Below are positions 41,428 through 42,140 of a DNA stretch of 64,000 bases, piece after piece. Both the position numbers and the translations under genes were made by a program. Position 1 is the stretch's first letter. Each line of letters starts with the position of its first letter. The DNA comes from Pseudomonas phage vB_PaePA10145phi1_MKR2, in the sequence record PV565008.1; one strand, written 5' to 3'. A model generated the notes under the pieces. The model made no database searches, was not told the origin of the DNA, and saw only the letters and a list, made by a program, of their open reading frames with translations.

Positions 41428-41829
41428 TTACTCATCACACTTTGCACGCCATTCTTCATATGCTTGCTCAATTTTAGCGCGCTCAGATACAATATGTGAC
41501 TTTAATTCTTTTATATAGTCAGTCAACAAGATATCGATTTGTTCCGGAGTTTCTATAAACTCTGTAATAATCGGTGTTGGCGGTACCGGTTTCTTTCTTG
41601 GTAGTTCGAAAACCATACACTTCTTACTAGTATCCTTACTATATTTTTTAGGTGTAGGCAGAACTTTTTGTATTACCTCTTCTTTAGTTGTAACAACAGA
41701 TGTATGATCATCTGTAGAAGAGGAGTGCTCATATTGGACCACAGTCGTGTTGTGCGTGTGGTACTCATGTGGCGTATAAACACAGCCACTGATAAGTGGT
41801 AGGAGTATTAGAAAGAACTTTCTTGACAT
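41428..41829 (-). CDS. Lipoprotein (about 133 aa), downstream partner of a small membrane protein
   Basis: Begins MSRKFFLILLPLISGC, with an LISGC lipobox. The mature part is Thr/Pro/Lys-rich with an amphipathic C-terminus. Confidence 0.55.
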   Translation of the reverse strand: MSRKFFLILLPLISGCVYTPHEYHTHNTTVVQYEHSSSTDDHTSVVTTKEEVIQKVLPTPKKYSKDTSKKCMVFELPRKKPVPPTPIITEFIETPEQIDILLTDYIKELKSHIVSERAKIEQAYEEWRAKCDE

Positions 41830-41849
41830 GTGATCCACCAATTTGGTAC

Positions 41850-42140
41850 TTACTTTAGCAAGTCATTTAAACGACGGCGGCGCTCAAGCATTTCAGCCTT
41901 CTCAGGCGTCATTTTCTTGAGTCGATCCATTTCGGCTTTAACGGCCCAGTTGCTTGCTTTAACTGACTTCAACTCACTAGTCACTATGAATAAGGTACCT
42001 AGTAATATTACAACTAGGATTAACATTGCCGTGACATGTTTGTTTTCCAGCAACACTTCCTTAATTGTTCTATCACCAAAGATAGCCCTCTTAAGGAATG
42101 GCCAAACGAAGAGCAAGGCTTTAATAGTCAAACCGAGCAT
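41850..42140 (-). CDS. Small membrane protein (96 aa) with two hydrophobic segments and a highly charged C-terminus; a holin candidate
   Basis: The segments are LTIKALLFVWPFL and VTAMLILVVILLGTLFIVT, followed by ...EMDRLKKMTPEKAEMLERRRRLNDLLK. This gives a class II holin-like topology. It lies 8 nt upstream of the lipoprotein gene. Confidence 0.45.
   Translation of the reverse strand: MLGLTIKALLFVWPFLKRAIFGDRTIKEVLLENKHVTAMLILVVILLGTLFIVTSELKSVKASNWAVKAEMDRLKKMTPEKAEMLERRRRLNDLLK

Follow-up and report, generated by a model that had tools for sequence, protein, structure and literature searches.

A spanin-like membrane protein and lipoprotein pair outside the lysis cassette of phage phiKZ and its Chimalliviridae relatives

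Why does a phage with a proven set of lysis genes carry a second small membrane protein and lipoprotein pair far from them? The question is raised by positions 41428 to 42140, minus strand, of a 64,000-nt stretch of Pseudomonas phage vB_PaePA10145phi1_MKR2 (record PV565008.1), which was analyzed here as a whole and is referred to as the window. Positions 40800-43000 are 100% identical to Pseudomonas phage phiKZ, and window positions equal phiKZ positions minus 118756. An earlier note on this DNA, made from the sequence alone, had described a 96-aa minus-strand open reading frame (ORF) at 41850-42140 and a lipoprotein ORF beginning 8 nt after it. Both are real genes, which RefSeq annotates by name only as PHIKZ156.1 and PHIKZ156, and the distance of 8 nt holds for the annotated TTG start of the second. 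The existence of the genes, their sorting signals, their conservation and synteny, and their coexistence with canonical spanins are all observed. The explanation that we tentatively favor, with somewhat less than even confidence, is that the products gp156.1 and gp156 form a co-transcribed, Chimalliviridae-specific envelope module, built like a spanin pair, separate from the lysis cassette, and bridging both membranes. The two genes and the parts of their products are as follows.

41850-42140, minus strand: coding sequence of PHIKZ156.1 (RefSeq), 96 aa, a predicted small bitopic inner-membrane protein
42036-42140, minus strand: gp156.1 residues 1-35, conserved N-terminal amphipathic module, presumably on the cytoplasmic face (KALLxxWPFLKRAIFGDRTVKEVLxxNK)
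41979-42035, minus strand: gp156.1 residues 36-54, transmembrane helix VTAMLILVVILLGTLFIVT, mean hydrophobicity 2.81
41853-41978, minus strand: gp156.1 residues 55-96, charged helical tail, presumably periplasmic, with AlphaFold2 helices and a C-terminal motif
41428-41841, minus strand: coding sequence of PHIKZ156 from the RefSeq TTG start
41428-41829, minus strand: coding sequence of PHIKZ156 from ATG, 133 aa, an outer-membrane lipoprotein by its signal
41834-41839, minus strand: Shine-Dalgarno-like GGTGGA, 4 nt upstream of the gp156 ATG, read from the sequence
41782-41829, minus strand: gp156 residues 1-16, lipoprotein signal peptide MSRKFFLILLPLISG followed by the lipobox Cys (lipobox I-S-G-C; positions +2 to +4 V-Y-T)
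41620-41781, minus strand: gp156 residues 17-70, His/Ser/Thr-rich flexible linker, no secondary structure, AlphaFold2 predicted local distance difference test (pLDDT) 40-54
41431-41619, minus strand: gp156 residues 71-133, conserved C-terminal domain with C71-x-x-F-x-L-P, a Pro-rich stretch (P83) and a 38-residue helix ending EEWRAKC131

The first step is the topology of gp156.1, for which hydrophobicity was taken as the Kyte-Doolittle mean over 19 residues. The two hydrophobic segments described previously are both present, with unequal strength: residues 36-54 form a strong transmembrane domain (TMD; 2.8), and residues 1-21 reach only 1.3, are amphipathic, hold K7, P14, K17, and R18, and make no clear TMD. 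A cleavable signal peptide at the N terminus was considered and rejected on account of the short h-region and the charged would-be c-region (KRA). All 20 homologues have a TMD in the corresponding place. Where the homologues are distant, four to six Lys or Arg against one Asp or Glu are found in the 15 residues ahead of it, and the 15 residues behind it are about neutral. From this charge bias and the C-terminal cysteines of the homologues, we infer from sequence that the N terminus is inside and the C terminus outside. The class II holin-like topology proposed in the earlier note, which would require two TMDs and both termini in the cytoplasm, is thus not supported for gp156.1, given its weak amphipathic first segment and the charge bias and Cys pairs that point to an external C terminus. 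The charged tail was described correctly; its 42 residues carry many charges and are helical by AlphaFold2, which, from a 9-sequence alignment, placed helices at residues 2-21, 26-32, 34-77, and 79-95 with a mean pLDDT of 73.5.

The N-terminal 35 residues are the best conserved part of gp156.1, and the TMD and tail are less so. In close relatives L9, L10, W13, P14, F15, L16, K17, R18, A19, F21, R24, E28, V29, L31, N33, and T37 are invariant. Single-sequence word-index searches for homologues were shallow and profile searches were required; among 1.84e9 representative proteins, a profile search returned 81 clusters (50% identity), all of 44-183 aa and all aligned from about residue 1. The core [WFLYIM]-P-[FYW]-[LIFVM]-[KRQ] occurs in 68 of these clusters, and the consensus anchored on its Pro reads K-A-L-x-x-L-W-P-F-L-K-x-x-I-F-[GK]-D-[RK]-T-V-[KR]-E-V-L-x-x-N-K-x-x-T, dominated by W-P-F-L-K, F+7, D+9, E+14, and N+19. 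The C-terminal domain is far more variable, from 39 to 129 residues, with coiled-coil-like long forms; the part outside the membrane is 42 aa in phiKZ versus 60-129 aa in more distant homologues. It often has one or two Cys, arranged as C-x6-C in PCH45, BUCT660, PhiEaH1, and KpLz-2_45. In the Pseudomonas group the extreme C terminus, RRxxLxxLLK, is conserved and is a candidate docking site for gp156. The protein belongs to a PHROG of unknown function (phrog_14813, E=1e-43).

For gp156, the ATG at 41829 is preferred as the start over the RefSeq TTG at 41841, because GGTGGA precedes it at a 4-nt spacing. The stop codon of PHIKZ156.1 (TAA) occupies 41850-41852, the TTG follows 8 nt on and the ATG 20 nt on; the ATG, 12 nt downstream of the TTG, yields the cleaner signal peptide. 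Another gene caller starts at the GTG at 41838 (136-aa cluster P0010). Read from the ATG, the signal combines a basic n-region and a hydrophobic core with the lipobox LISG-C, and leaves a mature protein of 117 aa. The lipoprotein thus has a predicted signal-peptidase II site, a clean lipobox whose Cys is invariant in 29 homologues. A strict lipoprotein-signal filter, applied to six frames and all start codons of the 64 kb, passed just two loci, gp141.1 (26122-26484) and gp156, so that the signal is not a chance pattern. Inner-membrane retention of lipoproteins is signaled by Asp at +2 in E. coli and by Lys at +3 and Ser at +4 in P. aeruginosa. As V-Y-T at +2 to +4 fits neither rule, gp156 is expected to be sorted to the outer membrane.

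Behind the lipid anchor, the linker varies in length and sequence in alignments, and the C-terminal domain is conserved. A 29-sequence alignment shows no variation at the lipobox Cys, C71, P83, or C131, within a motif C-x-P-F-x-L-P, helix, and C. AlphaFold2 modeled residues 70-132 with pLDDT 89-97 as an extended Pro-rich stretch followed by a helix at 95-132, and residues 17-60 as disordered. The two invariant cysteines of this domain are placed so that a C71-C131 disulfide could form. Two PHROGs match, phrog_15897 of unknown function (E=2e-64) and phrog_8165 over residues 70-131. In Foldseek searches against PDB and BFVD, gp156 retrieved its own family members alone and gp156.1 retrieved nothing. 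A 93-aa partial protein (P0011) on a 328-bp contig labeled Klebsiella pneumoniae is 89% identical to phiKZ gp156, and is most likely phage DNA contaminating, or mislabeled in, a K. pneumoniae assembly.

How widely the pair is kept was determined from 20 Chimalliviridae loci, fetched with the RNase H-like gp155 as anchor, from phages of Pseudomonas, Xanthomonas, Ralstonia, Burkholderia, Salmonella, Serratia, Escherichia, Erwinia, and Klebsiella. By tblastn, both proteins are found side by side in phiPA3, 201phi2-1, PS119XW/HPP-Temi, Phabio, Noxifer, Psa21, D6, and Viktualia, and matches with E of about 1 lie at the equivalent position in Ralstonia and Burkholderia phages. A membrane protein of the gp156.1 family is present upstream of the RNase H-like gene in 20/20. 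In 19 of them a gene for a gp157-like virion protein points away from a run of small membrane protein, lipoprotein (if any), RNase H-like protein, and gp154-like protein, and most of these loci continue with a gp153-like gene in the opposite direction and UvsX in the original one. The exception is Salmonella phage SPFM2 (SPN3US-like), which is rearranged and has an extra gene before RNase H. On sequence grounds, gp156.1 is the founding member of a putative Chimalliviridae-wide family.

The lipoprotein is less constant. It directly follows the membrane protein, always co-oriented, in phiKZ and 13 others, namely Pseudomonas phages, Xanthomonas RTH11, Ralstonia RSL2 and RP12, Burkholderia SURPRISE13 and FLC9, and Salmonella SPFM2, with spacings that range from an overlap of 4 nt up to some 60 nt between the genes. 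At the locus of the remaining six (PCH45, Goslar, PhiEaH1, BUCT660, KpLz-2_45, and Deimos-Minion) no lipoprotein was found. Homologues of gp156 were also detected in Erwinia phages of the SPN3US-like group, in CR5-like phages, and in Vibrio pVa-21. Some gp156.1 homologues are annotated with starts too far downstream, as in Viktualia (1679-1978), KpLz-2_45 (2432-2890), and Deimos-Minion (2947-3387), where the W/L-P-F/Y-L/I-K module sits in an upstream in-frame extension with a probable GTG start. Such truncated starts may explain why gene-clustering studies missed the family. No conserved membrane protein or lipoprotein is mentioned in the main text of the core-genome paper or in a 2025 review of nucleus-forming phages, and the SPN3US amber-mutant and CRISPRi-ART papers do not cover gp156.1/gp156 homologues.

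The next step is the relation of the pair to lysis, for which phiKZ has a defined cassette. Its spanins lie in the window as follows.

25731-26237: gp141, inner-membrane spanin (i-spanin)
26122-26484: gp141.1, outer-membrane spanin (o-spanin)

Manohar et al. (Sci Rep 2026, PMC12894885) found that these two proteins complement the lambda RzamRz1am mutant, and that gp142 makes up for a defective lambda holin and can be triggered with an uncoupler. Gp143 acts as the regulator of gp142, and the 141-144 cassette is enough by itself to lyse both E. coli and P. aeruginosa. The same paper reports that phiKZ lysis is delayed at high multiplicity of infection (MOI) and proposes a lysis-inhibition (LIN) system with an unidentified periplasmic signal; gp156.1 and gp156 are not mentioned in it. 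They lie about 13.5 kb from gp144, outside the cassette. The view of the earlier note that two lipoprotein-containing pairs in one phage are noteworthy is upheld, the pairs being gp141/141.1 and gp156.1/gp156.

Canonical spanins and the gp156.1 locus coexist in three divergent phages, phiKZ, PCH45, and SURPRISE13. In PCH45, gp54 (record 55185-55721; 11186-11722, minus strand, in the fetched piece) is a canonical i-spanin with an N-terminal TMD and an embedded, unannotated lipoprotein ORF in the +1 frame (…MLIACLTMVSLVGC…), and the gp156.1 homologue is gp68 (counted from UvsX = gp72), without a lipoprotein. Gp54 (Rz/spanin) was itself considered as the gp156.1 homologue and excluded by gene counting and by its own embedded o-spanin. 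In SURPRISE13 the pair of the gp156.1/gp156 type is 059/058, and a whole-genome scan revealed a second pair, 098/097, beside the gp142-like 096 (genes 096-098 at 93743-94879) and about 2.8 kb from endolysin 092 (90436-91239). Like gp141, protein 098 begins with a TMD and carries Y-C-x8-C in its C-terminal part; like gp141.1, the lipoprotein 097 combines a lipobox with a PPPP stretch and 'LREW'; and like holin gp142, 096 has an acidic cytoplasmic N-domain and a C-terminal TMD. All three are annotated as 'hypothetical', without reference to lysis. SURPRISE13 also has gene 032 (27411-28709, minus strand), which encodes a 432-aa protein with a strong lipoprotein signal (…FALAAC) and a Gly-rich linker. 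In BLASTP and hhalign comparisons of gp156.1/gp156 with the gp141/141.1 family, similarity was confined to the signal peptide, and an ancient duplication of the spanin pair was thus not detectable by these methods. Given the coexistence, the absence of shared homology, the lineages with a lone membrane protein, and the conserved N terminus, the two kinds of pair are therefore both old and mutually non-redundant.

Published fitness data cover the locus. In the filtered transposon sequencing (Tn-seq) of phiKZ, no insertions were recovered in orf153-157 (window 38533-43656), including 156 and 156.1, compared with 19 in orf158 and 9 in orf159 (Chan et al., PMC12676376). When expected insertions were scaled by TA sites from the per-TA rate in orf158/159, over the central 80% of each gene, 3.6 were expected in 156.1 and 7.6 in 156 versus 0 observed, with Poisson probabilities of 0.03 and 5e-4. 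The unfiltered table has 4631 reads at 156.1 sites, which must fall in the first or last 10% of the ORF. Both genes are likely important for fitness; the block 153-157 may also be sensitive as a region to transposon-driven transcription, without every gene in it being essential.

The transcript and its surroundings are described by the following features.

39924-41372, minus strand: PHIKZ155, RNase H-like, an essential replication and nucleus-maturation factor, the conserved downstream neighbor that defines the locus
42141-42318: divergent intergenic region between gp156.1 and gp157, from the gene layout the presumed promoter region of the 156.1-156-155-154 transcript

PHIKZ155 and then PHIKZ154 follow PHIKZ156 on the same strand (genes 154-156.1, window 39494-42140, minus strand), and the head protein gene PHIKZ157 lies upstream of gp156.1 in the opposite direction. 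Gp156.1 and gp156 are co-transcribed with gp155 and gp154 (PMC12571901), and among the literature searched this paper alone names the two in its main text, stating just their co-transcription. No promoter was identified; a scan for sigma-70 promoters and terminators is uninformative in phiKZ, which relies on RNA polymerases of its own. Antisense oligonucleotide (ASO) RNA-seq at one time point gave 894 reads per kilobase per million (RPKM) for 156.1, 608 for 156, 2975 for 155, and 10697 for 154, and knock-down of ChmA or of a subunit of the non-virion RNA polymerase (nvRNAP) lowered 155 and 154, not 156.1 or 156. The RPKM pattern and the knock-down response suggest that 155 and 154 have internal promoters that depend on the nucleus, and that 156.1/156 are served by another class of promoter. 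Antisense across gp156.1 runs a 123-aa ORF (window 41830-42201, plus strand), with neither homologues nor annotation, which is almost certainly a shadow ORF.

If the envelope module exists as proposed, gp156.1 would present its 35-residue amphipathic module on the cytoplasmic face, cross the inner membrane once, and extend a short helical tail into the periplasm. Gp156 would receive its lipid on Cys16 and be targeted to the outer membrane, and its flexible linker of about 55 residues would let the C-terminal domain, in which a Pro-rich strand packs on the 38-residue helix, reach across the periplasm. There the domain could clamp the C-terminal helix of gp156.1 and so tie the inner to the outer membrane; we infer this contact between the two proteins. 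The working end would be the cytoplasmic and membrane module of gp156.1, with gp156 as an accessory tether, since the membrane protein is found in every lineage, its N terminus is the most conserved part, and the lipoprotein is sometimes missing. A comparable reach is found in the bacterial outer-membrane lipoproteins LpoA and LpoB, in which a long disordered linker carries a small C-terminal domain to an inner-membrane-anchored partner. The likeness to gp156 is one of architecture only, as there is no match in sequence or fold and the partner of gp156 would be a phage protein rather than a penicillin-binding protein.

What such a module might serve can be guessed from the conservation pattern and the gene neighborhood. 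The leading guess, itself on the unlikely side, is that gp156.1 is a fixed membrane platform or anchor on which some conserved phage process takes place at the inner membrane, and not an agent of outer-membrane disruption. The stronger version, in which this platform is essential, its cytoplasmic module recruits the conserved process, and the lipoprotein pins it to the outer membrane or cell wall, we regard as unlikely as it stands. One candidate process would be procapsid assembly, an attractive idea because PMC10299810 describes Chimalliviridae capsids as assembling on the inner membrane and because gp156.1 has head genes as neighbors. Another would be a step that connects the early infection vesicle, which is membrane-bound, with maturation of the nucleus, considered because gp155 is co-transcribed.

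Several observations weigh against the module. The periplasmic tail of gp156.1 is short (42 residues) and its AlphaFold2 confidence moderate (mean pLDDT 73.5). At the time point sampled, the RPKM of 156.1 and 156 are 3- to 17-fold below those of 155 and 154. Insertion-free genes can be polar artefacts, and the insertion-free orf157 can be deleted (PMC12676376). Finally, two homologues bear spanin-like marks: the Deimos-Minion protein matches the Rz-like phrog_214/739, weakly (E about 3e-4), and the SURPRISE13 lipoprotein (058) was named 'O-spanin' by one depositor (UniRef).

These last two points lead to the rival that survives best, namely that gp156.1/gp156 is an auxiliary or second two-component spanin which disrupts or fuses the outer membrane at lysis, beside gp141/141.1. 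The earlier note had offered a second, separated spanin pair among its options, and the architecture bears this out. The gene order is that of lambda Rz/Rz1 and gp141/141.1, with a type II inner-membrane protein that has a helical periplasmic part directly upstream of an outer-membrane lipoprotein; both partners have periplasmic cysteines, as in Rz/Rz1, and together they are long enough to span the periplasm. As in an i-spanin, gp156.1 has an N-terminal type II TMD (aa 36-54), here preceded by an atypical module of 35 aa. The periplasmic domain of an i-spanin is mainly alpha-helix or coiled coil, usually as two helical segments with a hinge; for the 42 aa of gp156.1, AlphaFold2 models, with moderate confidence, helices to residue 77 and at 79-95. 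As in an o-spanin, gp156 has a lipobox and, by its signal, outer-membrane sorting (LISG-C, V-Y-T), and its gene is directly downstream, with a gap of 8-20 nt in phiKZ and adjacency in 14/14 phages.

The function is another matter. Lambda Rz/Rz1 can be fully replaced by gp141/141.1, and genes 141-144 suffice for lysis; canonical pairs coexist with the locus in the three phages named above; and the pair is transcribed with replication genes, among replication and head genes, away from holin and endolysin. Spanins diverge so fast that those of phiKZ, 201phi2-1, EL, and OBP are all family singletons (PMC6139136), whereas gp156.1 is conserved. Its most conserved part is the N-terminal module of 35 residues, which should face the cytoplasm, ahead of a phiKZ periplasmic tail of merely 42 aa. 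The N terminus of a spanin, by comparison, is cytoplasmic, short, and functionally unspecific. An o-spanin is typically unstructured, and gp156, despite its Pro-rich stretch and long flexible linker, has a confidently predicted 38-residue helix (pLDDT >90). Neither protein joined a described spanin family: gp156.1 matched phrog_739 at E=0.16, gp156 had no match to a spanin PHROG, and Pfam gave no match. An i-spanin is non-functional without its o-spanin, yet six lineages keep the membrane protein without an adjacent lipoprotein. We therefore regard a second spanin pair as improbable in function, even where its architecture fits.

The same six lineages could be read as a sign that gp156.1 and gp156 are unrelated neighbors that form no complex, each acting alone or on its own target. 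In keeping with this, the two periplasmic parts show no clean reciprocal compensation in length across phages. Yet the lipoprotein, when present, is immediately downstream on the same strand in all 14 phages, and both proteins have conserved C-terminal amphipathic helices, which makes mere neighborhood quite improbable.

A third reading takes gp156.1 as a holin-like protein of the T4 T type (class III) or a regulator of lysis timing, and gp156 as an outer-membrane-tethered, RI-like antiholin and possible LIN sensor. The topology parallels that of T4 holin T (PMC12894885), in which an amphipathic N terminus of some 35 aa on the cytoplasmic side is followed by one TMD and by a C-terminal domain in the periplasm that can carry a disulfide, with a separate periplasmic partner as in T with RI/RIII. 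A universal membrane protein with a dispensable periplasmic partner is the pattern of a holin and accessory antiholin, and the lysis delay at high MOI with its postulated periplasmic LIN signal would fit such a sensor (PMC12894885). The predicted topology of gp156.1, one TMD with the N terminus in and the C terminus out, is compatible with class III, without homology in PHROGs or Pfam. Against this, gp142 is a sufficient holin with gp143 as its regulator; scans of Pfam and PHROGs, distant homologues included, gave no similarity to holin or antiholin families; and the genes lie outside the lysis cassette, about 13.5 kb from gp144, a location at odds with a class II holin, which would accompany its endolysin. 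The periplasmic domain in phiKZ is small, and gp156 is an outer-membrane lipoprotein where the T4 partner is SAR-anchored (signal-anchor-release). The chance that this reading is correct appears small.

Equally little credence is given to superinfection exclusion or envelope defense that blocks injection by a second phage, as in T4 Imm/Sp, T5 Llp, Cor of T5 or of phi80/N15, and F TraS/TraT. Small membrane protein and lipoprotein pairs made by mobile elements serve exclusion in other systems, both products here are envelope-located by their signals, and their transcript is present at 15 min and, in one data set, not reduced by ChmA or nvRNAP knock-down. The Imm/Sp-like module suggested earlier nonetheless finds no support in sequence, as scans of both proteins and their distant homologues against Pfam, PHROGs, NCBIfam, and PADLOC returned only PHROGs of unknown function, without similarity to Imm, Sp, Llp, Cor, or PADLOC models; a PDB profile search matched T5 Llp (8a60_B) over signal-peptide residues 1-23 alone (E=0.78) and otherwise gave architecture-level noise such as ATP synthase subunit b and signal peptides. 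Exclusion genes are patchy accessory genes, whereas this locus sits at the same place in 20/20 phages, which may need it for fitness; its conserved part is the presumably cytoplasmic N-terminal module, and zero Tn insertions are unexpected for a dispensable exclusion gene unless the effect is polar.

The envelope module thus has the architecture of a spanin pair and, judging from its sequences, would be a distinct family with a distinct role, for which PHROGs list the function as unknown. This carries a warning for annotation: a gene for an inner-membrane protein with a lipoprotein gene behind it need not encode a spanin, and one homologue has already received the label 'O-spanin'. Nucleus-forming jumbo phages are a subject of intense study, yet no conserved phage membrane protein is described in the reviews, core-genome paper, and functional-genomics papers searched. 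The locus supplies one, an inner-membrane protein whose place is constant in all the chimalliviruses examined, usually with a lipoprotein partner. On the stronger, unlikely version of the platform idea, gp156.1 would be an overlooked core gene of the Chimalliviridae, and the pair would represent a new class of phage trans-envelope complex in which spanin architecture is reused for a non-lytic purpose. As the locus is separate from the lysis cassette, which was defined in 2026, it suggests that these phages have a second function directed at the envelope. This function could bear on the membrane anchoring of capsid assembly, on the sensing of superinfection in the proposed lysis inhibition, or on the integrity of the envelope over a long infection.

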